A DNA stretch of 63,805 nt, filler included, from Vannella sp. (taxonomy: Eukaryota), in the NCBI GenBank assembly GCA_023345925.1. It is 6 parts of 6 records of this genome, joined end to end, with 100 filler letters (N's around TTAATTAATTAA, not from the genome) between each part and the next. Parts side by side here need not be neighbours in the genome. Positions count along the whole stretch, not along the records: positions 1 to 12,920 come from JAJQQN010000544.1; 5 more parts are not named here. One strand, 5' to 3'. Numbering within the stretch: the stretch's first letter is position 1; the number at the start of each line of letters is the position of its first letter. A program made the position numbers and the translations under genes. Of the stretch, positions 935 through 61,896 are shown piece after piece. A model generated the notes under the pieces. That model made no database searches. It was given only the letters and a program-made list of their open reading frames with translations, and was not told where the DNA came from.

Positions 935-1759
935 TTATAACTCGTTGGCATCAGAGAAGCCCTCTCTCTCTGCAATCTGGGGAGCGAGTTCAATGAGGGT
1001 CAAGATGCTCATATCCTTGAGTGATTGGGGAGTGGTGTGGTCTTGGTCTTTGGCGTACTTGAGAAGAGTCTCCACAACCCTAGATTCTGTAGCGGCTGTT
1101 TTGAGGCCTTCGTCCGCGGAGGATAGGTGGCGGAGGACAACCGTCGCTTTTGTAGCAACTGGGCTATCTTCAGAGGCCTCAATGAGTCTCACCAAGAGAG
1201 GGACAACAGTGTCTTTGTGCTCATTGAAGTAGGCCAGTCCTTCGGGGCAGTCCCTCGCCATGGCAGAGACGATCCCAAGAGCTCGTTGGTTCACCTTGGG
1301 GTGTTTACTTAACTGTAATAGCTTGATTGTGATCCCAAGGATGCCCTGAGAGGCGATTGTGGTCTGGCAAAAGGGGTTGTTCTGAGCGAGAGTGCTGATG
1401 ACCCAGCAGGCCATCCACCTGACCTCAGCAGCCTTCTCTGTCTGATTCTCGTCCTCTAATCGGTATGTCATAGCCTGGGTAACCTCTCCGAGTCCAATCT
1501 TGGCCAAGTCGTTGGCATTGTCCACGTCCTCCACGAGATCCTGGAGCATCTCTAGCGCACTGATCTTATCCTCCTCCACAGTATCAAGTAGAATCTTGAT
1601 ACATTGCTTCATCTGCTTTGCCACCGAAGGAAGGGATTCCATCACCTTCCTCAACCACACATAATCCTCCGGATCCCTCTCCAGCCGTGTCTCGTGGAGG
1701 TTTGGCGCATCGTTTGCTTCCAAGCAAAACTTAAGAAGGGCAAAGTCCATGCCATCCAT
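935..1759 (-). CDS. Hsp70 nucleotide-exchange factor, Fes1/HSPBP1 family
   Basis: ALEMLQDLVEDVDNANDL and VRWMACWVISTLAQNNPFCQ match the Fes1/HSPBP1 ARM-repeat core; intronless. Confidence 0.85.
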   Translation of the reverse strand: MDGMDFALLKFCLEANDAPNLHETRLERDPEDYVWLRKVMESLPSVAKQMKQCIKILLDTVEEDKISALEMLQDLVEDVDNANDLAKIGLGEVTQAMTYRLEDENQTEKAAEVRWMACWVISTLAQNNPFCQTTIASQGILGITIKLLQLSKHPKVNQRALGIVSAMARDCPEGLAYFNEHKDTVVPLLVRLIEASEDSPVATKATVVLRHLSSADEGLKTAATESRVVETLLKYAKDQDHTTPQSLKDMSILTLIELAPQIAEREGFSDANEL

Positions 1760-1866
1760 CCCCGTCTCCCAATCAATGGAACATCCCTCGCGCTTCCTCT
1801 GCCCAATCCGAATGACTTCTTGCTGACTTCTCCGCGAGATTTCGTTGAAACTTCGGTGCTTCTGTT

Positions 1867-2319
1867 ATGATTGTGTGGGTAGCTGGTTGCAACACATCTT
1901 GGACCTACTCGTTCGATAGTCATGACACAGCATGTCTTCTCAAATGGCTCGACAAGCAAATTGTTCTCGCAATCCACGGTCAACAATTAGTCGAACATGG
2001 TGGAAGTCCTGGACTCCTGAACCCAGGACTTCTTGAATCATCTTTGACCTCTCCTCTCAATATCTACAACTACGAAGAGAACCCTTCAGTGTTTTACCTC
2101 GCTGCCGCCTTTGGCTTTTCCCTGGTCAAGAACCATGCTTTTTTAGATGGGAACAAGCGAGTTGCCTTTCAGGCAATGTTCACTTTTTTGAAGATCAATG
2201 GGGTTCTCCTAGAAGTGTCAGAACAAGAAGCAACCTTGTTTATGCTCAACCTTGCTGAGAGCAAAGAGTCCCAGGAAAGCCTAACCCAATGGCTAGAAAC
2301 GTTCAGCTCGAAAGTTTGA
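1867..2319 (+). CDS. Death-on-curing (Doc)-type Fic-family protein, bacterial-like
   Basis: WLDKQIVLAIH..QLVEHGGSPGL..GLLESSL..P and the active-site loop NHAFLDGNKRVA; size and layout match bacterial Doc-family toxins. Confidence 0.9.
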   Translation: MIVWVAGCNTSWTYSFDSHDTACLLKWLDKQIVLAIHGQQLVEHGGSPGLLNPGLLESSLTSPLNIYNYEENPSVFYLAAAFGFSLVKNHAFLDGNKRVAFQAMFTFLKINGVLLEVSEQEATLFMLNLAESKESQESLTQWLETFSSKV

Positions 2320-2489
2320 GACAGATAACTCAGTTTTAAGTAACATCCACTTCTGATCGTCTGCCACATGATTAAATCCTCCTCAAATTCACGACGATCA
2401 CCCACAACGCAACAGAAATTGTTCACAGAAAGACTTCGCAACCCTGGTAATATCCCCTCACCAAATGATTGTGTACAGTGCATTATTGA

Positions 2490-4334
2490 CTAATGATTGG
2501 TCCACAGCCTAACGCTAGGGTCGCTGTAAGAGGGTAATTGTTTGATAAAAAGTCCGATGGGAGGCCAGAACTGCCAAAGAGAGACCAAAGTCCAAAAGGC
2601 ACTGATGAGTGGAGGAAACACCCTGTTCATATCACACATGCGAGATGATCCAAGTCCACGGCAGGCTTGAGCTAACTCGAAGACAGCGCAAATGAGAGCA
2701 GCTGTGGCAAACGTGTAGTAGGCCAAATTCGGTAAGATATAACGGAGCTCCTGGTTCTGGCGGGCCCGTTTATCTTTAGGAGTCACTGTGAAATGAAGGG
2801 GCCGACAAGTTAGCACGCAAGCTATGGCACTGAGGAAGCAAGGAACAATAAAGACAACTTCCTGAAGACTTTTGCGAATGTACTTAAATGGCACACCTTG
2901 ATTAGCAGTCACTGATAACACTAAATTGAAGAGTAGGAGAGGAATAGCGAAGCCAAGATATTGAAGCGATTGGAAGTGCCCAAGAGATATGTCAGACTCA
3001 GGCCCATAAACCCTAACTATAAGGAATAGTGGGGGCACTATAGTCAGAACAGAGATTGGGAGTGCCAGGAGGTTATTGAAGCCAGCAAAAAAGTAAAGGA
3101 ATCGCTGGGTGATTGTGAGTCCCTTCCGGAAGAGTGGATTGTGTCTGAAAAAGATTTGAAGTCCTCCTGCTGACCAACGGAACCTCTGCTTGAAAAAATC
3201 AGAGTACGTGTCTGGGGCAAGTCCGGTGCAAAGAACTTCGCTCAGATACTTTGTCTTGAACCCAGCTCCATGCAAGGCCAAGCTTGTCAGAAAATCTTCA
3301 GTGATTGAGCCATATTGAAAGTATCCTACACTCTCCAGAGCTTTCCTCTGGAAGATGACGTTCGTTCCACAACATGGAGCTGATCCTCCGGCATCCCAAG
3401 CTCTAAGAGCAGGTCCGTAGAAGCTCCGGTTGGTCTGACCTAAAGGGTCATTGGAGGGGATGTTATAGAAGGACTGAGGCGTTTGAATCATACAACAACG
3501 CTCATCAATGGTATGAGGTGAAGAGTAGAAGTGCGGCACAGTTGCCTGAAGAAAGTCGGGACTGCAAATCATATCACAATCAAACACCACAACGAGCTGC
3601 CCTTGGCTTTGAGTTAACCCATAGTTCACATTACCAGCCTTGGCATGATGAGGAACACCTGATTCTTTGGTCCGAGCAATATAATACACCTGAGGACCTT
3701 CAAAGCCGGCTATCGCCTCCACCATCCGCCGATTCTCTACATCACCAGCATCATCAAGAACGTAAATCTTCAACCTATCTTGAGGATATCGAAGGGCCCT
3801 GGAGGCCATCATAGTCGCTTGGACAAGTTCCAACGGTTCAGTATAAGTTGGAATGAGAACATCCACTGTGGGATACTCTCCCACGATTTCAGGAAGATCT
3901 CTTAACCGTAGTTGCTTCCGCTTGATTTGATATAAAGTGACAAAGAGAGTGGTAACGCTCCCCAGAAGGACGATGGCCGTCTCGCATGCAAAGAAGGGTA
4001 TTGAGAGCCAGTATGTTGATGAGGAAGACCAAAAGGAAGGCCAGCGCCATGCTTCGTACGCCACAGTTGACGTTATTGCCAAAAGTGCCGCTAAAATGCG
4101 CGGAAAGGAGGGTCGGATGGGTGAGTCCTCTTCGAAGGGGTCAGATGGAGGGACATATAAGGTGCTAGAGTCACCAAGATCCTCTTCCTGTTCGCTGGGA
4201 AACGACAAGTCCAACGGTGATAGTGAATCAGCATGTTTAAGGAACTCCGCTGCTCGGGATGCAACGGAATGCCAGCTATTCTCCTCCAAACGGATCTCCG
4301 AAGCGCAAGAAGGTTCTACCAACTCTCTCTCCAT
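2490..4334 (-). CDS. GT2 cellulose synthase catalytic subunit (BcsA/CesA-like), intronless
   Basis: DVLIPTYTEP, LDD, HAKAGN, FDCD, QTPQSFYN, CCGTN, TED and QRFRW (QxxRW) motifs, with N- and C-terminal TM helices; first ATG at 4334 (the ORF-track start at 4463 is TTG). Confidence 0.9.
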   Translation of the reverse strand: MERELVEPSCASEIRLEENSWHSVASRAAEFLKHADSLSPLDLSFPSEQEEDLGDSSTLYVPPSDPFEEDSPIRPSFPRILAALLAITSTVAYEAWRWPSFWSSSSTYWLSIPFFACETAIVLLGSVTTLFVTLYQIKRKQLRLRDLPEIVGEYPTVDVLIPTYTEPLELVQATMMASRALRYPQDRLKIYVLDDAGDVENRRMVEAIAGFEGPQVYYIARTKESGVPHHAKAGNVNYGLTQSQGQLVVVFDCDMICSPDFLQATVPHFYSSPHTIDERCCMIQTPQSFYNIPSNDPLGQTNRSFYGPALRAWDAGGSAPCCGTNVIFQRKALESVGYFQYGSITEDFLTSLALHGAGFKTKYLSEVLCTGLAPDTYSDFFKQRFRWSAGGLQIFFRHNPLFRKGLTITQRFLYFFAGFNNLLALPISVLTIVPPLFLIVRVYGPESDISLGHFQSLQYLGFAIPLLLFNLVLSVTANQGVPFKYIRKSLQEVVFIVPCFLSAIACVLTCRPLHFTVTPKDKRARQNQELRYILPNLAYYTFATAALICAVFELAQACRGLGSSRMCDMNRVFPPLISAFWTLVSLWQFWPPIGLFIKQLPSYSDPSVRLWTNH

Positions 4335-4489
4335 ATCCACAATGAGCCTTGGATCACCCTCCGGAGCAGCAAAGCCTGTGAAGGGCCAAAAGCCCCTCCG
4401 CAAGTCCAGCAGCAAAGACGCCTTTGCAACGCCAGACAAGAACGTGTTGACAAATGGCCCCAATTTAGTTCAATCAAATCAAATAATAA

Positions 4490-5824
4490 TTATTTCTTTG
4501 TCTGGTCGCCCTGTTTGGGGGTGGCGGACCGAAGATGTCCGAGGAGGGATTGTGCTGCTGCTATCTTCTTGGAAGGCCCTTGTTTTGAAGTGGGAGTGCT
4601 TCCTGGTAGGTTGAGATGAAAGGCTCGGGCGAGTTGGTGAGTGACATCGCTTGGGGCGATCTGGGCGGCTTTCATCGCTCGGAGGACTCGTTCTACTTTG
4701 GCGGGGTTCTTTGGTTCTAAGGAACACCGCGCGGAGAGGAGAGAGTTGATGAAAGTGATCTCAAGGGATAGGTCTGCGGCATTGTCCTCCAACTGATCGA
4801 TTCTTTGGATGTCTCCGCCTTGTGTGAAGAACCTGACGAAAGGAGAGAGCCATTCAGTGCTTGACAGTAGTCCTTCCCTCTCTCTAACATCTTGGAGTAT
4901 GGAAGAAGCTTCTTCCTCCATGTGATTGTCGAGATAGGCTCTAATCATGGCTTTGAAGAGTCCTGCATCTGCAGTTCCCTTCGTTGTCTCTAAGATGCCT
5001 GGAAGGAGGTCACACCGACCTTGCGAACCGTAGAACTGAACCACTAAAGCGTAAAAGTGAGAAGATAACGGCAGCTGGAGAGATCGAAGCGACTCTATCA
5101 TCTGAAGTGTTTGGTCCGTTCTCCTTGATGAGATGAAGTACTTGAGGCAGATGGTATAAGTAGCCTCAGAAGCGACTACCCCGCTTTGTATCATGTCTTC
5201 TAGGAGGTTGTGAATGGGCTCCCAAGGGGCAAATGGCTCACGGGTTGCGAAACCCAACATCATGTTGAAGGTACCAGTGGACACTCTCCGGTTGTTGGAA
5301 TGAGCCATATCCTTGATACGTCCCCAAACAACATAAACTGACTGGTTGTCGCCCTTTTGGACAAAGAGGGCCAGCACACGCTCTAGTGTCCTGGAATCGA
5401 CTTCGATCTCAGCTTGTTGGAGATGAGAGAGAAGATCAAGAGTGGCACTCGTGTTCCCTCGCTTAGTGTGGTATTCAATTAAGTTGTGAAAGGGCTCTGC
5501 TGTGAGTGAACATCCTAGCTCCTCGTAAAGGCTGATCACCTCCTCAGCCCGTGCCACTTCTCCCCTTCCAACGTGATATCTCACCAGTGCTGCACAGATG
5601 AAGTGAGATGGACACTGCTTGGAGGTATGGAAGGAGGACTCCAAAGCAACAGCTTGCGCAGGGTGCTTCTCCAACAGAGAAAAGAATCTCTTCTCGTCAG
5701 AGAGAGACACTTTGCGCACCGAGGCGGAGGACGACCAGCTCTCAAAGACACGCTTCAGTGGGGCAACTGTTGCGCAGCTCCGTTTGAGGGGCAGGGATCG
5801 ATATCGCGCCACCGTCCTCAACAT
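4490..5824 (-). CDS. Pentatricopeptide-repeat (PPR) protein, probably mitochondrial
   Basis: Arg/Ser-rich presequence (MLRTVARYRSLPLKR) and ~35-aa helical repeats (FHNLIEYHTKRGN, TYTICLKY, FKAMIRAY). Confidence 0.75.
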   Translation of the reverse strand: MLRTVARYRSLPLKRSCATVAPLKRVFESWSSSASVRKVSLSDEKRFFSLLEKHPAQAVALESSFHTSKQCPSHFICAALVRYHVGRGEVARAEEVISLYEELGCSLTAEPFHNLIEYHTKRGNTSATLDLLSHLQQAEIEVDSRTLERVLALFVQKGDNQSVYVVWGRIKDMAHSNNRRVSTGTFNMMLGFATREPFAPWEPIHNLLEDMIQSGVVASEATYTICLKYFISSRRTDQTLQMIESLRSLQLPLSSHFYALVVQFYGSQGRCDLLPGILETTKGTADAGLFKAMIRAYLDNHMEEEASSILQDVREREGLLSSTEWLSPFVRFFTQGGDIQRIDQLEDNAADLSLEITFINSLLSARCSLEPKNPAKVERVLRAMKAAQIAPSDVTHQLARAFHLNLPGSTPTSKQGPSKKIAAAQSLLGHLRSATPKQGDQTKK

Positions 5825-6416: not shown

Positions 6417-9400
6417 ATGATCAACATGGAGGATCAAGAGGGAGTATTTCCAAGTTGCCTGAAACTGAAGGACTACCGAGCCGTCAAGTTGGGCAAGGGC
6501 CGTATCTTCCGACCTCTACAAGATATTTACAGCCAAAGCGACATCCTAGAAGGCGGAGTTGATGCGCCAAGATGTCCTGATCTGTGGAGCATGGCCCAAG
6601 AAGGGGGTGTGGATGAGCTACGCGGCGACCTTGAGGGTATTAAGGCGCGTGCCAAGGAGGTGCACGAAAAGAATGAGATGAAGAAACGCTCCGTCATTAG
6701 CGAGGCCTCTCGAGGATCGAGAACCTGCCCTCCCTTCCTCCTTAGTGCTTGCCCTAGTGACACGAAAGGGGATTTGTTGGAAGTGGCGCTGAATCAAAGA
6801 GCGTGGAGTTGTGTATCATGCTCCCATACCAAGAGGGGATTCACCATTTGCTGCTTGTGGTGCGCAAAGAAGTGCCACGCAGGTCATTTGATCCGTGAGA
6901 CAACATCCCAGCTTCCTCAGTGTGACTGCGGGACCACTGGCCATGAACCACCCACCAAAGCAGTCAGTGGGTCTGATTTAGACCTTACAGATGGGGTAGG
7001 AGAGGCTACTTCTCCAGGAGATCGCTTCTGATCAAGTTGGGCATCAGGAGGGAATCACTGCGCTCTTCCACGCAGCAAACAAGAGCCGATTGGAGATGGT
7101 CAGATTCCTCCTTCAAGAGGGATCAAGTCCGTTGGCTCTGAATCAAGTGAGCCCTTAATCTCAAGAGTTCTCCGAAGTTAACTCGCCTGGAAAGGATGGG
7201 ATGAGTGCTCTACATGCTGCTTGCCTTGCAGAGGACTTAGATATCACACACATCCTCTTGGAAAATGGTGCAAGAGTCAATCAACGGGATCTTACGGTGA
7301 GAACGGCCTTTTGTCTATCAGAAAGGAGCTTATTGCGAGTAGAGCGAGTTGACACCTCTCCATATTGCTTGCGAGAACGGAAGCACAAGTGTAGCTCGTA
7401 TATTGATTGAAAACGGAGCAGAAATCGATGCCACAACAAGCACAGGATATACACCTCTTATGCTAGCTGCTCGGAAGGGAGAAGGCCCTCTGGTAGAGCT
7501 CCTTCTCAACCACAAATCCAAGATAGAACTGAAGAACCATGACGAATCCACAGCATTGGATATCGCTGTGAGATACGCTAACTTGGACTGTCTAGTTCTT
7601 CTTTTGTTGTTCGGGTCAAAACTCCAGTTTCGGTCGAAAACGGTGCGGCATCTTATCAGAAAGTGGTAGATTCGCGAACTTACCTCTGGGTGTTTAGGGA
7701 AAGCAACTTATGGGCACTCTTATGAGGCCTCGAAGGCATCGGCAGAAGCGGTCACCAACGATCAGGCAAAGTGGAGGGACTGGGGCACTCTACAAGCTCA
7801 CCCGGGATGCACTTTTCCGCTGTGCCTGCCTGTTAGATGATATTCAGCTATTGTCGGACGTGATGACCTACTTTCGGCTTGACATTGATGAGCGCCTCTC
7901 AGCGTATCAGAGTGACAGTGGGATGGAGTTTGAGAGATCTGTCTTCCAGAATTCAGAGAGCCTCCCTTTAATAACTGCCTTAGCTGCCGTTAAGATACAC
8001 GGAAAGACTGGGGTAATCGAAAAACTCTTCCAGAATCAAATCAATGTCTACCGAAAGGAGGAAGGATTGCCCCTTTTGATACTCCAATGTCATTCCTTGG
8101 ATGTTCAGTTCACATGGATAGAACATTATGCCCATTCTAGCAAGTTCCGAAGTACCACTTTGAGGCTCTCTGACTGTGGTCTACCGTGTCTGCCACTTCC
8201 TTTCCTCGATGCACTTCGTATTTACAACGGAACTGGAAACGACAAGCACATAGTGGCTCTAGATTTGCAGGACAACCTTTTGGATAGTATTCCTCCCCAA
8301 CTAGCAAGTATAGGCCATTTGAAGGAAGTTAATCTACAAGGAAATCCCCTTGGGATAATGAATTGGATGGCAGACCGCACCTGGCTAGAGGTTAAAGAAT
8401 ACCTTTCCAAATTGGAAGCGCGAACCTCTCAATGGAACTCCTGTCGCATCCTATTGGTGGGTGACCGGGGATCAGGCAAGTCAGCCTTGGCAGATTGTTT
8501 TCGCAAGAAGAGAGGTTCCACAAGTTCAAGGCATTCTTCTGTGCCTGTTCATAGCCTCGTTGTTCATCCACATACCTGTATTGACAAGAGCAAATCCATC
8601 CAATTCAACCTGTGGGACCTTGGTGAAGATGAGGTGTTCTACCCAACTCATCGCCTCTTCATGTCCAATCTTGGAATCTGCATCATCGCTATGGATGTTG
8701 CAGCCAACATAAGAATGTGGTTGGATGGTGATCTCAGCTTTTTACACCGAATAGGATATTGGCTTCAAACGGTTCGTTCTTTGTCCTCTCAGGAACGCAC
8801 CCGGCTTCCAGTTTTACTTGTTGGAACTCACGACGACCAAGTAGAGGTCTCATCGGACATCAAAACGGACTTCAGAATGCTCTTACGGAGGCACTTTCCA
8901 CGGGAAATCTTTTACTTTCTCAAGGAAACTCTTTTCGTGAGCTGCAAGAATGGTTCTGGTATCTCCGAGCTAAAGCAACACCTTTTGGACATTGCCTCGG
9001 CTCCAAACTTTCTTCCAATGGTCCAGGAATCTTGGGTGCGCCTCCATGATCTTCTTGAGAGTGTCCCCACGAAACCGACTAGAAAGCTCTCTGCAAGTGC
9101 ATCTAAGCGCACAGAGGTGGGCACCTCGGCTGTGGAGATTCAAAATCAAGAAGGCGATGTCATTCCTTGGGAAAAGTATATGTATTACGCTGAACAGTGT
9201 CAAGTTACCGACCTTAGAGAAGCAACCGAATTCCTGAAAGGCGAAGGTCGCATTATTCACTTTGGCGACTTAGCACACCCTTCCTCTGGGAGCTTAGTCA
9301 TTCTCAATCCGCACTGGATTATCGGGTTGATGGGCACACTGACCAACCTAAGACACTCAACGCTCTCATCAGGGTTCCTCCCAATAAGTGATATCCCCAA

Positions 9401-12400
9401 AGTATTCAAAGACTATTCTGGGTCGCTTCTCTCTTCGATTCTGGACATTTTCAAAAGGTTCAATATTTCTATCGAAATGCAATCTGGTAACTTTCTTGAG
9501 TTGGGAGGCTCAACGAATGGCATCTTCATCCCCGCCATTCTGGCTGCAGATATTCGTTACAACACGATTGTGAATCATTGGCCTCTCCAGTTTCCTGAAA
9601 CTTACGTTGAGCAGGGGCGCATCTATCGCTTTCACATGTACCCTCTTGATATTTTCCATCGCATCATGGAGTCTGTATTGAAGCTACCGCGCTTACGAGC
9701 TCGTCTTGTGTGGAAGAATGGATTGATTATTGAGGTTGACTTTGTTTCTGCGACAAAAGAAACCAGGGAAGACTTCCCCAAGCAGTATGCGTATGTCTTA
9801 TTCAGTAGTAATTTGGAACTTTGCATTCGGGTTCGAACACCGCGCGCTCAGCGATTTGGAGGAAGCTCTCTCCTTCGATCTCTGGTGAATGCGATTGAGA
9901 TTCAGATAGAAACCGCTAAGGCTGAAGTGAAGAGAATAGTACCGTGTTCTCATTGTATCGCCAAACGGAATAGCAGTAACGGCCATTCTTCTTCCGTCTG
10001 GAGGACATCACGGTGCGACCAGGTACTTGGCTCGGGGTCTCACGAAGGAATCTTTGAATTCCCCTTGCAAGAATGTGTTAACGCTCTGTTCTTGAGTGAG
10101 AGGTCTCTGTGGTGCAACCATATAAGGAGCCCATCTCGCCGTGTTCGATTGGTTGAGCTAGCACCTGATATTGCGCTCTCTCACATTCCCTTTATCAATA
10201 GTAAGCAGTTGGAAGTTGCCAAGGAAATAGGAGCGGGTGCATTTGGCACTGTTTACAGCGGTACTTTAAACATTCCAGGATCTCAACGCTCTCTTGACGT
10301 TGCAGTGAAGCGCATGAAAGAGGATTCTCAGTTTTCTGTCGACACATTCTTGGAGTTCCAAGCAGAGGTCCAAATAATGTCTGAAGTCAAGAGTGACTTT
10401 GTGGTGAATATGTTTGGCATTACATTAGAGCCCCTTCAGATAGTTCTTGAGCTCGTATCAAAGGGAGATCTCTTTGGCTTGCTGCATCCAAGCCGTAAAT
10501 CTGGGTCCGAAGGAATGTCACTCAGCAAGATACCAAGTAAAGACTTTCCTTGGAAAGAGAGACTTCTGATTGCTCTGGACATTGCTCAGGGCATGGCTGC
10601 TTTGTCTTCTCAAGAGCCTCCAATTGTACATCGCGACCTTCGAAGTGCCAACATATTCATTCATAGCCGATCGCTCGAACCGACCGCAGTTCGGGCAAAG
10701 GTGGCAGACTTTGGTCTATCTCGCTTTGTGTCTGCTCCTCTCAACGGATCTTTGGAGACCTGGAGATGGCTAGCACCCGAAGTGATCAGTCCAACAGCAA
10801 CCTACGGCATTGAGTCTGATATTTACAGCTTCGCCATTATCTTGTGGGAGATTGGATCTTGTTGTTATCCCTTTGATTCATATTATAGCGACGAATCAAT
10901 GTCCTATCTCAGCGCCAATCTCAAAACTCGCCTCCTTAATGAGGAAAAGCTGAAAGCGGGAATCATTTTTGATAACGTACGCCCTCCCCTCGACTTAGTG
11001 AAAGTAGGAGAGGTCAATCAAACTGTGGAAACGCGCGAGGAAGCTGAAAGGGCTTGTCAAGTCCTCCACGAACTCATTAAAGCCTGTTGGGTTGTTGATC
11101 CACAGAGCCGTCCGAAGTGGGACGAAGTCATTCAAAAACTACGGGATGCCCTTCAGCTCCACACACACTTTGAAGAGGGCCATCCTCACGAATTAACTGA
11201 CTCTCTTGTCGATGTCCCTCAGGCCGGTAACCAACTCATGAAGAAAATGGCCGCTCACACGAGCGGAACGCCACATACTAGTGATTCTTCCTTTGTAGCC
11301 AGCTCCACTGGAATTATAATGGACCATTTCGTCTCCTGTGAAGATGACAAACAATTTACTAGTGCCATCCTCGTACCTGGGACTCCGCTAACAAGCCCCT
11401 CGGAAGAGTATTTGTGGACTTCCACAACCGGAGGAGACATACTCGTATTTAACATGTCCACTGTAAGACCAAAACCATCTTCCGTCCTCTCTAACTCTGA
11501 AAAGGTCGTCAAGCTGAAACACTGGAACGCTCATTCCAATCGAATCATAGCGCTTGTAGCAGCACCTCATAATGATCACCAAGTCGTCTGGAGCATCTCC
11601 AAGAGCGGAAGAATCAAAGTATTCCATCAAACGGTATTCTAGAAGATCCATGTTAGGCCAGTGACTGACTTTTGGATAGAATATGGACCTCATTCGAGAA
11701 TTCAAAGCCCCTAAAAAGTGCCGTCATGTGGAGGGCACCCAACTCATTCACAATACCAAGGGCCAGTGGTTCATTTGGGTGTGGGCGATATCTTTTGTGC
11801 ACTCGCATATCTATATCTACGACGTCGATAGCTTGAGTGTTATTCGTGAGTTGGTTATTGACCGGAAACGAAAAAGCATCTCGGCTCTCAAGCAGATGCC
11901 AAACGGCCAGATTTGGATGGGATTCTCTGATGGACACATTCGTTTGTATAATCCAGATAGCCTTGACCACATGGACTGGCCTGATGCATTTCGCTATGAG
12001 ATTACAGCTCTTTCTCACTTGCCCCTCTCTGGGGCAAGCCGAGAAGGGGCTTCTTCGCATTTCTTAGCGTGTGGTTCTGATAGCCACGGCTGGGTCACTG
12101 TCTGGCGCGTGGAAGGAGAATACGATATCCATCAAATCGCCAGTTCAGAAGCGCACATTGGCACGTCAGTCACTTGTCTGGCAGCGTGCCCACTTCTACC
12201 CAGTGAAGCAGAAGGGGATGTTGACAATCTCCTTCCGAACTCGCCTCGACAAACACTCAACGATTCAGAGCTGCGACTCTTCGATGACTGGCAAAAGCTC
12301 TACGAAGTGGTAGAAGAGGGAGGCGCCAACACCAGCTTTACGACCAATTCAAGCACAATGGATTTAAATGAGAGCTTCTCACTTTCAGAGACTTCTGCAC

Positions 12401-13211: not shown

Positions 13212-15146
13212 ATGTCTGTGGCGGAGTGGGTGCGGAGAGCGATCCAGTGCGGGGGCCACAGTGAGGGCCAGCGGAAGCTTGTGAATGTGTTGGAGTCACA
13301 GTACTGGGCATGTCTACGGTTCTATTCCAATGAGAAGTGCTACCCGGCTGTGCGCAGTGTGGTACCAGAGGAGGGGATCAGAGCGCGTGCGAGGGAGTGG
13401 ATGGCCTCTTCAGAGCATCTTTTCAAGTGTGAGTCGGATTATGAGAGGTCTCAGGAGGCCTTTGTCTGCTCTCTCATGCACTGGATGAAGTTTGAGTGGT
13501 TTTCCTGGGTGGACCAACCTCCCTGTGACTTTTGTACCGTAAGAGAGTGGTCCTTCTCGCTATATCAGCCCCTCTTACGCAACAAAGGGGCCTACAAAAG
13601 CACTGAGTCATGCCTCTGCCTCTCCAGAGGAAGCAGCGAAAGGTTCAGCGCGGGGAGTGGAGTTGTATTCCTGTTCTCTGTGCGGTTCCACCACTCGCTT
13701 CCCTCGTTACAATGACCGTTAGTTTCTACCATCAGCACCTTCTTATAGGACGCTCACTCTATGTCAGCACTCGTCCTGCTTTTGCAAACGAAGCGGGGGA
13801 GGTGCGGGGAGTGGGCCAATGCCTTCACCATGGTCTGCTGTGCAATGGGGCTTCGCGCTCGTCTGACACTTGATATGACCGACCACGTTTGGACCGAGGT
13901 CTTCATTGAGGAGTCAGAAGAAGACCGTTCGAAGGGCCGTTGGGTTCACATGGATGCTTGCGAGAACTTGTTCGATGCGCCTTTGGTGTACGAGCGGGGC
14001 TGGGGAAAGAAACTGAATTACGTCTTCTCTTATCACAAGGAAGGAGTCAATGACGTCTCCTTGCGGTACACCAGAGACTTTGCCAATCTCAAGCCCCAAA
14101 GACACTTTGCGACAGAGTGAGTTTGTGACAGTGTTTCAGCCCCATCCATTGACAGAATGCAAGGGAGTGGCTCAAGGACGCTCTGTTCTACCTCAATTTC
14201 ACAATTCAAACTGGAGGGCTTCCATTTGGTCTTCATTGGTCCTCTTCGGAGGTCCAACGCATTCAGGAAGACCAGAAGAGGGAGCTGAAGAAGCTCCTTG
14301 AAGGGGCATCTACAAGTGGCTCAGACGAAAGCCTTCCTCGCCAGTCAGGCTCCAGGGAGTGGCGGGAAGCCCGTGGCGAAATGGGAGATGGAGAAGACAG
14401 TTCTGTTCTGCCCAATGTATTGGAGGATGGTAAGATGAGGATTGTTTTTGATTTCCCTCACTTCAGGGCGACTCCTCCTACTCTACGCCTTCTTGGAAGT
14501 TGCATTTTGGACCCAAACGCACAGGCCTTGCAACTCACTGAATCAAGACCTTCTCAGGCAGGGGCATGCTGGTTTATTCGCCCATTCTCTATCAGAGAAT
14601 CGTTCGTAGTCAAGTTTCGCTTTCAGATTCTCAATAGCGGCGCAGACGGGTTTGCCTTTGTGCTGGTGAGATTGACTGAGTCACAAAAGAGTGAGCTGCT
14701 AACTGCGGCCGCAGCAACAGGAAGGATTGAATGCTTTGGGGGCTCCTGGTGGAGGAAAGGGATATGCAGGAATCACCAAATCAGTTGCTATTGAGTTTGA
14801 TACTTACGAGAACTACAGCGAGCTGGACGATCCAAACGGCAACCACATTAGCGTGCACTCGAGAGGTGCTTTAGCCAACTCTGCCCATCATCGCTTCTCA
14901 TTATCGTGTAGCGGCAAAATGCCCTCCCAAATGAACGATGGGGCGGAGCATTCAGTCAGTATCTCCTACCACGCTGAAGAGGCCAAGCTTTGCGTTTCCC
15001 TTGACAACCAAATAGTTCTCGCCTGCAAAGTCAACCTGTTTGAACGAATAGGAGGTGACGCTTTCCTTGGGTTTACCGCTGGAACCGGCGGATTGACTCA
15101 AACTCATCGACTTCTCTCTTGGTCGCTGTTCCGCCCGCACTCTTAA
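13212..15146 (+). CDS. NGLY1: Peptide:N-glycanase (PNGase) with C-terminal legume (L-type) lectin domain; multi-exon
   Basis: FSWVDQPPCDFC, RFPRYND, RGRCGEWAN, DHVWTEV, WVHMDACE, YERGWGKKL and RQSGSREWREARGE, then GADGFAF, VAIEFDTY, NHISVH and GFTAGTGG. Confidence 0.92.
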
Positions 15147-22939: not shown

Positions 22940-24903
22940 ATGTACGGTGACCTTCCTGGAACACCTACTCCCAGCCCACACGATGGTTAGCGAGCTCACT
23001 GCCTCCCTTTCTATGCGGAATCTCACGCTGTTTTCTTAGCAAGAGGACGGGGACGGGGGCGAGGCCGAGGTTTCAGCCCAACAACTCATGGTGATGACAC
23101 CAGCATTCATCCCCCCGCTGGGTCTGGACCAGCTTTGAGAGGTAACCTCGCTACAAGGGGACGCCATTCTAGTTACACACCTTCTTCAGGGTTACCTGAT
23201 GCTGGTGGTCGTGGAGCACCTCTAAGCGCACTTCCTCGTGGTAGAGGCGGCCGCGGAGGTTTGGCAGCTCCACCGACGCGCCCCTCCAGCTCATACGTCC
23301 CAGAGGAGCCTACTCCGTCAATGCCTCGTAGTAGTTCACTCTCTGAAGGGAGGCCTGCCACTTCCACAGCAGGAGGAAGGGGCGGCGCCACACCCCCGCC
23401 AACAGCAGCCCCAAGTCCACGTAACTCCAGTGGTGCACCTGTGAAGACTTCGAGTGGATTGCCACCTCCTATTGCCAGTACCTTAAAGACTGGCGCTCGC
23501 CCGATCCCAAAGTTCTCCGACATGTCCGGCGATGACGAAGAAGATGGTCCCAACCCACCTCCTCGCTCTCCTCAGGTCTCTCCGAGAATGGCCAACTTAC
23601 CTCCACTCCCACCACGCACCAAGGCTACTGCCTCTTCAGCTGGCTCTAACAATGCCCCAACGCCAGCAGCTCCTGGATCTCCCAAGGAGGAGATGACCCC
23701 TGAAAAGGAGGCGAAGCGGGCCGAGTTACGCCGAAAGTGCGTGCAAGAGATCTACCAAACAGAGAAGGACTACATCGTGGACTTGGAGATCCTCATTAAC
23801 GTAAGTAGGCTCCGCACCGGAAGCGTTTGACTCAGCTTGAGCCAGGTCTTCATCTTCCCCCTTCGCACGATGGCTGTCTTGGAGGAGAAGGTGCTCTATA
23901 GCATCTTCTCTAACTTAGAAGTGCTCATCAACTGCAACAAGGAGATGCTCATCCAGTTGGAGAAGATCATTACGGAGACTCCTGCGGGAGACGATGTGAC
24001 CATCGGCCATGCCTTCACTGGTCTGGCAGACTACTTTAAGATGTACAAGGTCTTCTGTGCCAATCAGTCCACGTCCCTGTCAACGGTGGAGACGTGTGCA
24101 AAGAAGAACCCGACCTTCAAGAAGAACATGGACATTTGTCACTCAGACCCCCGTTGTCGCGGTCTCTTCTTGCAATCCTTCCTTATCAAGCCTATCCAAA
24201 GAGTGTGCAAGTATCCTTTGCTCTTGAGAGTCAGTAACGCTTCAGGGAGTGTGGAAGAAGCTCACCAAATGTGGGTTTAGGAGCTCATCCGGTACACTCC
24301 AGAGATTCACCCAGATTGGGAACCCCTGCAGTCTGCCTTTTCGAAGATTAATGGCGTTGTTGCTGACATTAACGAAGCTCAACGCCAGGCGGAAGGTCTT
24401 CAACGCATCCTTGACCTTCAAAAGATGATTGAGGGAGTGGAGTCATTGGTGGCCCCCGGCAGGAATTACGTCAAGGAAGGTGAACTTACGCAGTACAAGA
24501 GTGCCAAGGCTAAGAGTGGCGAGAAGCGTCACGTGTTCTTCTTCACTGACCTCATCCTTCTCACTCTGAAGCGAGGAGAGAAGAAGTTCGAACACAAAGT
24601 ATCTGTGGATCTAGATTCTTGCAAGTTAGTCGTCTTAGCAGACTCTTCACGTAAGCAGAACCTCTTTCGAAGCATCATAAGTGCCTTTTCACTCACTGTG
24701 CGGTGGCAGACATCAAAAACTCTTTTGAACTGTCCAACGGCGACCCGAAGGGAAAGAAGTGCATTTTGAGTGGCGAGACTCCGGAAGAGTCCAACGTGTG
24801 GATCAAGGAGATTCGGGGTTTAATCAAATCGTATCAAAAGCGAAAACTGAGAGAGTTGGAAGACCAAAGGCGCAATGGCTTGGTCCCCATCGACTCCAGC
24901 TAA
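22940..24903 (+). CDS. RhoGEF (DH-PH) with Pro/Gly/Arg-rich N-terminus; multi-exon
   Basis: RRKCVQEIYQTEKDYIVDL and FLIKPIQRVCKYPLLLRELI (DH); RHVFFFTDLILL..SNVWIKEI (PH); predicted start MYGDLPG. Confidence 0.9.
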
Positions 24904-54034: not shown

Positions 54035-54830
54035 ATGGAGCGCAGGGGAAAGACTGAGGCGACACCAAGTGAGATGATGAGCCCTTCTCATCCTGAGCAC
54101 GACCTCTCTGTGATGAACAATTGGTTCGATTTGTTCCGGAATAACCGACTTTGGGCTGCTTCGACTGAAAAGAAGGATCCTGAGTACTTTCAAAGGCTTG
54201 CTGCGGCGCAGGTATACTCGAGTGTCCATGATTGGGAGGTTATTGACTTCAAAACTCCAGAGCCCACCCTTCTTCTATGTGGGATGCTGCGACTCTCGCT
54301 TGCCTCTGAATACCTTCACCAGAAGTGGTCCTGGACACTTCTTTGTGCACCGAAACATCGCCAATCAGATCCACCATAACGACATCAACCTCCTCGCCTC
54401 TTTGGAGTACGCTGTGAACTTCCTGGGTGTCGAGCACATCATTGTAGCGGGCCATTACCGTTGTGGTGGTATCCGTGCTTCAGTTCATGGTGTCTCAAGC
54501 GGAGTCATTGGGAGCTGGGTACAACCAATTCGTTTGACGTACCTCGCCCATCGTGATAGCTTGGACGTGGATAACGAAGAGCACCTCCTTGATCAACTGT
54601 CCGAGCTGAACGCCGTTGAGCAGTGCAAGAGCTTGCTTGGCACCAAGATCATGCTTGATCGCATTGAGGCAGGGCAGAGCGTCCCCACCATTCACGCCGC
54701 GATCATCGATCTTGGAACAGGGCACATCAACGAACTTCCCCTTCCCCTTCAACAGTGGAGGGACCAGAAGTTAATCCCACAAAGCTACAACAACAACGGC
54801 TACGAGCCATGCGACATCACGACCAAGTAG
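54035..54830 (+). CDS. Beta-class carbonic anhydrase (one intron)
   Basis: NNRLWA..DPEYFQRLA, GCCDSR, FVHRNIAN, LEYAV and GHYRCGG zinc motifs. Confidence 0.95.
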
Positions 54831-60058: not shown

Positions 60059-61055
60059 ATGGCCCTCAAAGATAAGACCAACGTGCCACTTTCTCGATTG
60101 TTTGAGGAGGCTGCAAAGGAGAAGCGAGCAGTGAGTACTGGACCCTTACCACTTGTTCATTGACGAAGTATATTGACGATATCTGAGCTTCAAACGAGAG
60201 CTCGTGAGGAGAGTGACCAGGTAAGTCCATTGATGCCTATCTCAACGAGTGACTGAGACTCTTATAGCATAGGCAGGAAGTCCGCTTGGTGAGTTCCCAA
60301 GCCAAGGACGAGGTTAGTTAAAAGTAAGTGATCAAACTTGAGTCTTAATGTTGTCCAAAGCGCCGAAGGCTCAAGAGGCAGGAAAAGGATGAGGTTAGTT
60401 AAAAGTAAGTGATCAAACTTGAGTCTTAATGTAGTCCAAAGCGCCGAAGGCTCAAGAGGCAGGAAAAGGATGTGGTGAGTTACTACTTCTTCTGAAGCTC
60501 GTTATTGATCTCTTTCACGCTGGATCTCTGAGGAAAACCTGAGAAACGTAAGCGCATATGCATATTCCTGTCATCGTGGAGAACTTATCCTGTTCCCGGA
60601 AATCATTCTTTGCTCCACAGATTACGAAGAAAGTCGAAGAACTCATGGCGAAGGAGTTGGATGATTCATCTGCAAACTTTCTGGAAAGACTGGCCAAAGT
60701 TGAAGGGAGAGTCGAAACCCAGGCTGAGCAGCTCAGAACCCAGGCAGCCAAGATTGAGCATCTGGAGGCCTCCACATTGAACTTGTTTAGTGTGGTTCTG
60801 TCGAAGGCTCATCGGAACAACGCGCGAAACCAAGGTACTCCTGGCGTTGCCTTGCCCGGCTGGAAAGGGCGATTCCTCAAGCCTCAGTCCCGTTCCGAAT
60901 CATTGAAGAGGCACATCGCTCAAGACACGCCAGCCCGATTCAAGGAGTACCTCGCCCTCCCAACCTCCGCACCTGAGAGAGACTGCCTCCTCGCGTTCTA
61001 TGAAGTCAATCAGGATGCCCCTCTGGATCACTTGTTTGGCCTCCTTGGTATCTAA
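60059..61055 (+). CDS. Hypothetical coiled-coil protein with micro-exons
   Basis: MALKDKTNVPLSRLFEEAAKEKRA, several GT-AG-bounded short exons, and a last exon from 60621 with heptads. Confidence 0.5.
60310..60471 (+). repeat. 81-bp tandem duplication (48-nt intron + 33-nt exon)
   Basis: Two copies differing at one intronic base (AATGTTGTCC vs AATGTAGTCC). Confidence 0.9.
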
Positions 61056-61161
61056 CAACCCCCCAGGATCGATCCCAGCAATTCACAATAAATCACTCCA
61101 TCGCACACACCCACATTACAAATGTCCACTGACTCCACTAACTCCACCTGCTCATTCCCAA

Positions 61162-61896
61162 ATGCTCAGGTCCGCACAGGTGGCTTGGAGGTTACAACCC
61201 AGGGTTGGCATGGCTGCTGGGAGGTGGTCTTATGGGCAAAGGCAGATCGCCTTCACGCAAGCGAATGAACTGAAGCGGGGCGATCTGGTCAACATGAAAG
61301 GGCGCGTCTTGGAGGTGATTAAGACAGGGTTCTGCAAGACTGGCGCTCGTGGCACTGCATACACACAACTAGAGCTTCGTGACATCGAAACAGGCAAGAA
61401 GCGTGAGGATAGAGTCCGTACAGACGAACCAGTGGAGAGCTACACGACGGAAGCAAAGGAAGCCTCCTTTGTTTCCATGGCCCTCACTGGGAAGATGAAA
61501 GCTGGCAAACCTGAAGGTACAGTATCCTTTACACTAGACGAAGAAGCGGAAGGAGAGGACCAAATCACCTTGCCCGCTGAGAAACTGCCTTGGCCAGCCA
61601 TGTACTACGCTGAAGGTGAGATGCCCACTTGACTGTGGGAGAACCTGGTACTAAAAGGATGCCCCCCAGCACTTGGAGAGATCAAGTTGTCCTTCTATGA
61701 TGAGAACAAGTTCCTCGCAGCGCGTATTCCCGACAAAGTGACCGTGGCCGTGATCAAAACCCACCGTATCGGAGCTGGCATTGACGGGGAAGTCACTGTT
61801 GAGAACGGACGTAAGATTAAAGTACCCCACCACGTAAAGGAAGGCGACACGATCACGATCAAGCTCTCGAATGAGGAATACGTCACTAAGAACTAG
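61162..61896 (+). CDS. Mitochondrial-targeted elongation factor P family protein (one intron)
   Basis: Presequence; ANELKRGDLV..KTGARG.AYTQLELRDIETG; C-terminal ENGRKIKVP..KEGDTI..EYV. Confidence 0.85.

Follow-up and report, generated by a model that had tools for sequence, protein, structure and literature searches.

The window analysed here is a stretch of 63,805 nucleotides (nt), filler included, made of six parts from six records of a Vannella sp. genome (assembly GCA_023345925.1), and its first part carries a gene of bacterial type, a Doc toxin gene, lodged between two eukaryotic genes. The gene appears as an open frame of 150 codons at 1867-2319 (+), encoding a protein of 150 amino acids (aa) with a Fic/Doc domain. 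To its left lies a host gene for a Fes1/HspBP1-type nucleotide exchange factor (935..1759, minus strand; Pfam Fes1, expect value (E) 3e-12), divergent from the Doc open reading frame (ORF), and to its right a host gene for a family-2, cellulose-synthase-like glycosyltransferase (2490..4463, minus strand; Cellulose_synt E 2.5e-23, Glyco_tranf_2_3 E 5.7e-23), convergent with it. The Fes1 ORF starts at 1759 on the minus strand and 107 nt separate its ATG from the Doc ATG at 1867, the very distance given in the original prediction, which had described an orphan bacterial Doc-type gene inside a eukaryotic contig. The glycosyltransferase gene ends 170 nt past the Doc stop codon.

The 1867-2319 ORF belongs to the Doc toxin family. 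Its product matched the Pfam Fic/DOC model PF02661 over residues 27-108 (E 3.5e-16, 60.3 bits against a cut-off of 24) and the NCBIfam model TIGR01550, DOC_P1 (E 6.7e-19, 68.3 bits against a cut-off of 38.65), exceeding the curated cut-offs of both, and phage P1 Doc chains in the PDB were matched by sequence at E 5e-10. As assembled, the 150-aa product (1867..2319, +) begins with 25 non-native residues that extend the N-terminus; the rest is the Doc core, residues 26-150 with the stop codon (1942..2319, +), which is 83-85% identical to its nearest relatives. The catalytic motif H90-A-F-L-D94-G95-N96-K97-R98 is encoded at 2134..2160 (+) and opens the segment HAFLDGNKRVAF (residues 90-101, nt 2134-2169), in which Lys97 occupies the Doc-specific position and the second Arg is missing. 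Both the intact Doc-like ORF and this motif, with its Lys and without the second Arg, had been announced beforehand and are indeed present. HAFLDGNKR (residues 90-98) aligned to HIFNDANKR of P1 Doc, and both conform to the active-site motif H-x-F-x-(D/N)-(A/G)-N-K-R. Seven residues (G49, H90, D94, G95, N96, K97 and R98) were invariant in all 57 aligned family members, and the window protein keeps every one of them. Its sole departure from the consensus shared by at least 70% of the family is F82, a position where 52 of the 56 other members have Tyr and none has Phe.

In agreement with the sequence matches, an AlphaFold model of the protein (mean predicted local distance difference test score, pLDDT, 89.5; residues 1-17 and 19-21 below 50, with a disordered N-terminus) had P1 Doc chains as its top fold matches in the PDB, with a template modelling score (TM-score) on the target of 0.88-0.92 and a root-mean-square deviation of 1.5-1.8 Å, the best superposition of the helical core giving 0.92 and 1.5 Å. 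An exhaustive search of representative proteins retrieved 7130 family members at E <=0.001, the best of them 50% identical; nearly all of the best 150 of these 7130 have a single domain and a length of about 105-150 aa. The window protein shares with P1 Doc, the death-on-curing toxin of a type II toxin-antitoxin (TA) module (TIGR01550, PF02661), a single-domain Fic fold of about 125 aa and the H-x-F-x-D-G/A-N-K-R motif with its Doc-specific Lys. It differs in that the identity is about 25%, and in that the window gene has no antitoxin, lies in a eukaryotic chromosome, has a frame-shifted native start and encodes the 25 non-native N-terminal residues. According to PMC7180214, Doc phosphorylates EF-Tu at Thr382 and thereby blocks elongation, and the Lys of the motif inverts the orientation of ATP and sets Doc apart from AMPylating Fic proteins, which have Gly.

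Upstream of the core, the DNA preserves the end of a second bacterial gene. Homology to cyanobacterial loci extended by blastn over 1889-2320, with 82% identity to the metagenome locus L021 (78/98 identities in the blastn match to L021 that supports the antitoxin stump). Its onset was abrupt at 1889, inside the antitoxin gene, and no similarity was detected upstream of that position. Upstream DNA is available for four close loci (L020-L023), and in every one of them a gene for a 76-aa MazE/AbrB-type antitoxin (PF04014) ends 5 nt before the Doc ATG; a further locus, L001, begins at Doc and offers no upstream DNA in which to judge the antitoxin. The window retains the last 31 nt of this gene as a 3' stump (1889..1919, +), which includes its TAG stop codon at 1917-1919 and shows, by blastn to L021, a 2-nt insertion at about 1896-1897. 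A tblastn search of the relatives' antitoxin against the whole window returned nothing (best E 0.89), and no antitoxin ORF was found upstream of Doc. Where a type II TA module has its cognate antitoxin gene directly upstream of the toxin, only 31 nt of antitoxin are left here. The earlier statement that there is no upstream antitoxin was thus borne out, whereas the partner it had in mind, Phd, was not: the remnant is of the MazE/AbrB type.

The likeness to cyanobacterial MazE/AbrB-Doc pairs (L020-L023 and L001; P0002-P0049) amounts to 83-85% identity in protein and 75-82% in DNA, and the homology takes in the last part of the antitoxin gene and the short stretch between it and the Doc ATG. By contrast, the antitoxin is complete in all four of these loci for which upstream DNA is available, and their neighbours are bacterial, whereas the window has 31 nt of it and eukaryotic neighbours. 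It should also be noted that L020 has, upstream of mazE-doc (3458-4634, minus strand), small adjacent ORFs of 161, 110 and 115 aa which by eye resemble further TA-type pairs.

Several lines of evidence bear on the source of the gene. From 107 candidates, 70 homologues were retained, of which 49 were 64-97% identical and about 130 aa long; one of the proteins, P0046, is named Microcoleus and is 80% identical. Among the GTDB species genomes (19 loci), the single match above 50% was a Synechococcales metagenome-assembled genome (MAG), at 83%, and four of 32 metagenome loci (L020-L023) were 73-84% identical. L021 carries psbA and a phycobilisome gene near Doc, and L020 and L001 have ParA near Doc, a plasmid-like setting. 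The close relatives that could be placed, 5 of the 49, were all cyanobacterial, and the Atlas neighbour clusters of the Doc protein were bacterial in 30 of 30 cases. In a quick maximum-likelihood tree of 90 rows (omitting L009 and L013, which have stops, three proteins shorter than 110 aa including that of Microcoleus, and 27 of 51 loci that were partial, duplicate or distant), the window protein paired with P0001, a copy from another assembly that is described below, with a support of 100 in the approximate likelihood ratio test (SH-aLRT). This pair lay inside a six-row set with L021 (SH-aLRT 96), itself within a 50-row clade (99) that holds the Synechococcales row and in which the window branch is the longest (0.11). 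The tree set the gene in a clade of Doc toxins whose placeable members are cyanobacterial. A search for closer donors in the plasmid collection yielded no match in DNA, and its protein matches (551 records) all stayed below 60% identity; viral contigs gave one locus, at 39%, with no sign of a phage vector.

The closest relatives of this bacterial Doc gene sit in cyanobacterial TA pairs. Tree nesting within a cyanobacterial Doc clade, the bacterial Atlas clusters and the DNA identity to L021 all bear out the horizontal acquisition that had been proposed. Because a full Doc gene with cyanobacterial TA relatives lies, together with a 31-base antitoxin stump, between two eukaryotic genes, it was likely picked up recently. 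A transfer from a cyanobacterium to the eukaryote, whether or not the gene found a use there, is in our view highly probable, and the transfer is likely to be recent.

We then considered how the frame is opened. The native Doc start codon (1922..1924, +), placed by the alignments and by the codons that match the P0001 start MTQHVFKW, is out of frame with the core in the window assembly. The cause is the sequence CTTCTC (1936..1941, +), which contains a 2-nt TC insertion that is missing from P0001 and from the four cyanobacterial loci aligned over this site (L001 and L020-L022); the insertion falls 15 nt after the native ATG, its placement within the repeat being ambiguous. Because of the TC insertion, the native ATG reads into a stop, and the frame is open only because another ATG, at 1867 and 22 nt outside the homology, is in phase. 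This ATG lies in the left copy of a 10-nt direct repeat, ATGATTGTGT (1867..1876, +), whose right copy is found at 2465..2474 (+). In a post hoc test, 62 of 5000 shuffles gave a flank-to-flank match of at least 10 nt, as did 14 of 438 real-sequence controls, and the repeat bracketing the insert hints at a target-site duplication. How far the foreign DNA reaches on its 3' side could not be set by homology because the cyanobacterial loci diverge after the Doc stop. Bacterial expression signals were uninformative, with no sigma-70-like promoter in 1700-2560 against 1.3 expected from shuffles, and one terminator-like site, within the Doc ORF, against 0.5 expected.

The same gene also occurs in two further public assemblies, whose core protein agrees with that of the window in all 125 residues. 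The first protein, P0001 (131 aa), starts with MTQHVFKW, which corresponds to the native start without TC. The second, P0328 (147 aa), starts with MVAGCNTSW and fits one G fewer in the 1877-1879 run together with TC; this form has no in-frame ATG unless the segment 1875-1919 is removed as an intron. A Logan contig of the sequencing run X1 is also one G short at 1877. The frame-changing indels among the three variants are confined to the 5' end (the first 75 nt), with none in the core. In addition, the X1 contigs break exactly between 1939 and 1940, a position at which, worked out by hand, a de Bruijn bubble would have its borders were both TC alleles present in the sample. When the window was compared with Logan contigs over 1200-3100, the only base differences were T>A at 2337 (X1) and G>A at 2914 (X2), with none in the core.

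The substitution pattern and composition of the gene were compared with those of its cyanobacterial relatives and of the host. The ratio of non-synonymous to synonymous substitution rates (dN/dS) between the window gene and cyanobacterial genes was 0.05-0.11, at a synonymous distance (dS) of 0.8-2.0 (5 window pairs), and one cyanobacterial pair gave 0.06. Substitutions unique to the window lineage numbered 21 synonymous and 13 non-synonymous (18 and 7 for L021), from which the dN/dS of the window branch was estimated by hand, from site counts, at about 0.18. This purifying pattern fits a recent transfer or continued constraint alike, the two being indistinguishable as the branch includes the unsampled bacterial donor lineage. 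With a GC content of 0.44-0.46, the Doc ORF is among the lowest values of the first 12 kb (range 0.44-0.55). Codon-usage log-likelihood scores, for which the host and cyanobacterial reference genes were scored in-sample, were -0.014 for the Doc ORF, -0.012 to 0.037 for the cyanobacterial homologues and 0.046-0.137 for 14 host genes.

Taking these observations into account, we favour the view that Doc has probably not been domesticated and is carried along as a silent or neutral passenger. The segment 1889-2319 would be a fragment of a cyanobacterial mazE/abrB-doc operon, comprising the last 31 nt of the antitoxin and the whole Doc gene, which came to lie between the Fes1 and glycosyltransferase genes of a microbial eukaryote, likely via recent horizontal transfer. 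It may have entered at a break in a spacer on the 130-nt scale, possibly leaving ATGATTGTGT as a target-site duplication, and the left copy of that repeat would by chance have supplied the in-frame ATG. The product, if translated, would be an ATP-dependent kinase of the Doc type, for which the sole candidate target in a eukaryotic cytosol would be eEF1A. That a Doc without antitoxin persists could mean that it is not or only weakly expressed, or that it is harmless to eukaryotic translation.

Several observations weigh against a mere passenger. The 125-codon core is free of stops and frameshifts, its protein is identical in three assemblies, and F82 alone departs from the consensus of at least 70% of the family. 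The 21:13 ratio of synonymous to non-synonymous changes is a purifying pattern, though on a branch that includes the unsampled donor lineage, and a protected core would likewise fit the finding that both polymorphic indels lie within the first 75 nt and leave the core untouched. Moreover, two of the three variants have an ATG-led full-length ORF and removal of the proposed intron would restore one in the third, and the divergence from Fes1 at 107 nt could provide a shared promoter.

Some of these points also speak for domestication. In that scenario, the Doc kinase would be expressed from the ATG at 1867, perhaps after splicing of 1875-1919 and from a promoter shared with Fes1, and would modulate the organism's own translation, in dormancy or stress, or hit bacteria. 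Besides the intact core and catalytic motif and the purifying-type substitutions on the window branch, the TC insertion brings the core in frame with the ATG at 1867, and the 1-nt deletion at 1877 falls inside the proposed intron, where it would be harmless if the intron were spliced. The GT...AG letters of this 45-nt intron (1875..1919, +) are present as predicted, and its length is plausible since a 44-nt host intron exists. PMC5851678 also reports that a eukaryotic FIC enzyme AMPylates eEF1A2 at the site equivalent to T382 of EF-Tu. By contrast, the 5' end is not fixed among the assemblies, and P0001 retains the bacterial start. The proposed intron overlaps the antitoxin stump, of which its body mostly consists, and the polymorphic G run 1877-1879; its donor, GTGGGT, differs from those of the host introns, which are short (about 44-60 nt) and have donor sites GTAAG, GTCAGT or GTGAAT, and no branch-point-like CTNAC motif was seen by eye. 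Furthermore, codon usage is not shifted to that of the host but remains cyanobacterial-like, the selection signal is inseparable from time spent in the donor lineage, and the N-terminal extension, inspected by eye, has no targeting-peptide character and no Arg or Lys. Finally, no second eukaryotic copy or orthologue was present among the homologues found, the only other copies being the window's own variants. The suggested domestication is therefore unsupported by the intron, by the 5' indels and by codon usage, and we consider it unlikely, although it is the main rival of the passenger reading.

In its fullest form, in which the duplication supplied the ATG, a 2-nt weld joined it to the core, the 45-nt stump is spliced as an intron and the kinase phosphorylates eEF1A or organellar EF-Tu under stress, the eukaryote would have turned a Doc captured in the biofilm from a neighbouring cyanobacterium into a gene of its own. 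This sequence of events we hold to be improbable; if true, it would be the first eukaryotic use of a TA kinase. An effect of Doc on eukaryotic translation is conceivable by analogy, and antibacterial or dormancy roles are pure speculation.

A different objection concerns the assembly itself, as a cyanobacterial read path might have been threaded into a eukaryotic metagenome contig. The stretch was found in five runs, none of them an RNA run, and only in biofilm and freshwater metagenomes at low depth (about 3-6), and the same runs hold relatives of the TA locus at high depth: on L021 (4819-5383; X1-X3), several mazE-doc variants of 80-90% similarity were present, mostly at a depth of 20-144, and such abundance could have helped a false join. 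No single Logan contig runs across all of 1200-3100, and the Logan runs may include the source sample of the window, so that they count as separate assemblies and not as independent reads. However, an artefact would need two chimeric joins 430-600 nt apart, both returning to the same eukaryote. At the left junction, an X1 Logan contig (1706-1939) joins 54 nt of the Fes1 coding region to the start of Doc and includes 51 nt of the homologous DNA; the separately assembled P0328 has the same letters across the junction region 1877-1921. On the other side, an X1 contig (1940-2433) and an X3 contig (2262-2513) connect Doc with the right flank, and parts of the stretch, e.g. 2514-2541, have no Logan cover. 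The depth of the Doc pieces, 2.9-5.6, equals that of the eukaryotic flanks and not that of the cyanobacterial copies. In addition, a truncated antitoxin and a frame-shifted start would be hard to tolerate for a living bacterium with an active Doc. We conclude that the window copy belongs to the low-depth eukaryote and that the related cyanobacterial operons are its abundant neighbours; contamination or misassembly appears very improbable. Because the cyanobacterial mazE-doc variants occur at high depth in the same runs, possible donor lineages live beside the eukaryote.

FICD/HYPE-type Fic AMPylases, the Fic proteins of eukaryotes, are large, contain a TPR region and have the motif HPFxDGNGRxxR. 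They share the superfamily fold core with the window protein and appear among the fold matches of its model, but only weakly (E 3e-3 or worse, TM-score on the target 0.27-0.29, with chains of 315-340 residues), and they lack close sequence kinship; the window protein is a 150-aa single domain with Lys instead of Gly and no second Arg. That the gene is an old, vertically inherited member of a eukaryotic Fic family is excluded by the tree and by DNA homology, its chance being close to nil, since it is nested in a clade whose placeable members are cyanobacterial, its 82% nucleotide identity to a cyanobacterial locus reaches into the antitoxin gene, its best 150 of 7130 family matches are almost all single-domain proteins of Doc size, and its Lys is of the Doc type that PMC7180214 opposes to the Fic Gly.

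With the transferred passenger as the preferred explanation, the locus would be a snapshot of a transfer soon after the event, with a donor-type operon recognisable up to the antitoxin stop, a possible target-site duplication and a start region in flux, and the abundant related cyanobacterial loci in the same samples add to its value. The finding is not new in kind, transfer from bacteria to protists being well known and the Doc family well studied. It nevertheless illustrates that a bacterial toxin gene inside a eukaryotic metagenome contig need not be contamination, and the window Doc offers a simple test case for the action of a Doc kinase on eukaryotic eEF1A. Full-text searches of the literature, judged by titles and the openings of abstracts and hence no proof of absence, brought up no paper describing a toxin gene of the Doc type in the nuclear genome of a eukaryote. 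The insect genes cdtB and aip56, as described in PMC10120054, are likewise bacterial toxin genes in eukaryotic nuclear genomes; they differ in being reported as expressed and functional in several hosts, whereas the window Doc is known from one organism and has an unsettled 5' end.

The remainder of the window is eukaryotic in character. As the original prediction had noted, the Doc contig carries spliced genes, and short GT-AG introns were found along with genes for PPR, RCC1, Sec24, adaptin, listerin, RhoGEF, SH2, ankyrin and Roc-COR kinase proteins. The Sec24 protein has named matches of 30-35% identity at best and another match at 55%, with no close sequenced relative, and the Atlas neighbours of the host proteins are generic eukaryotic clusters. 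In-frame stops at 23828, 24278, 43198, 43582, 44082 and 50942 interrupt long ORFs in or near GTAAG-type donor sites. A variant genetic code, which such stops might suggest, was rejected, as TAA, TAG and TGA are all represented (4, 4 and 3 times), several of them within GTAAG donors; with the standard code, the interruptions are very short in-frame introns (44-60 nt), some a multiple of three in length.

Other genes of the window deserve mention. The Roc-COR-kinase gene is of the LRRK/Roco type and encodes 1310 aa (7710-11639, +), and near it lie ORFs that encode a transglutaminase core and a legume-lectin domain (13749-15143, +). A bacterial-type RecA is encoded on a eukaryotic contig at 44616-45614 (+; Pfam RecA E 2.9e-113). 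Of the relatives that bear a name, proteobacterial MAGs come closest (61-66% identity), and identities of 81-86% were seen with short unnamed contigs; targeting to an organelle or a further transfer is the probable explanation. An ORF with an EF-P KOW-like domain (60907-61629, +; E 1e-10) and one for a beta-carbonic anhydrase (54117-54827, +; E 1.3e-39) both represent typically bacterial or organellar families, and may bear on the question of a plastid in the host.

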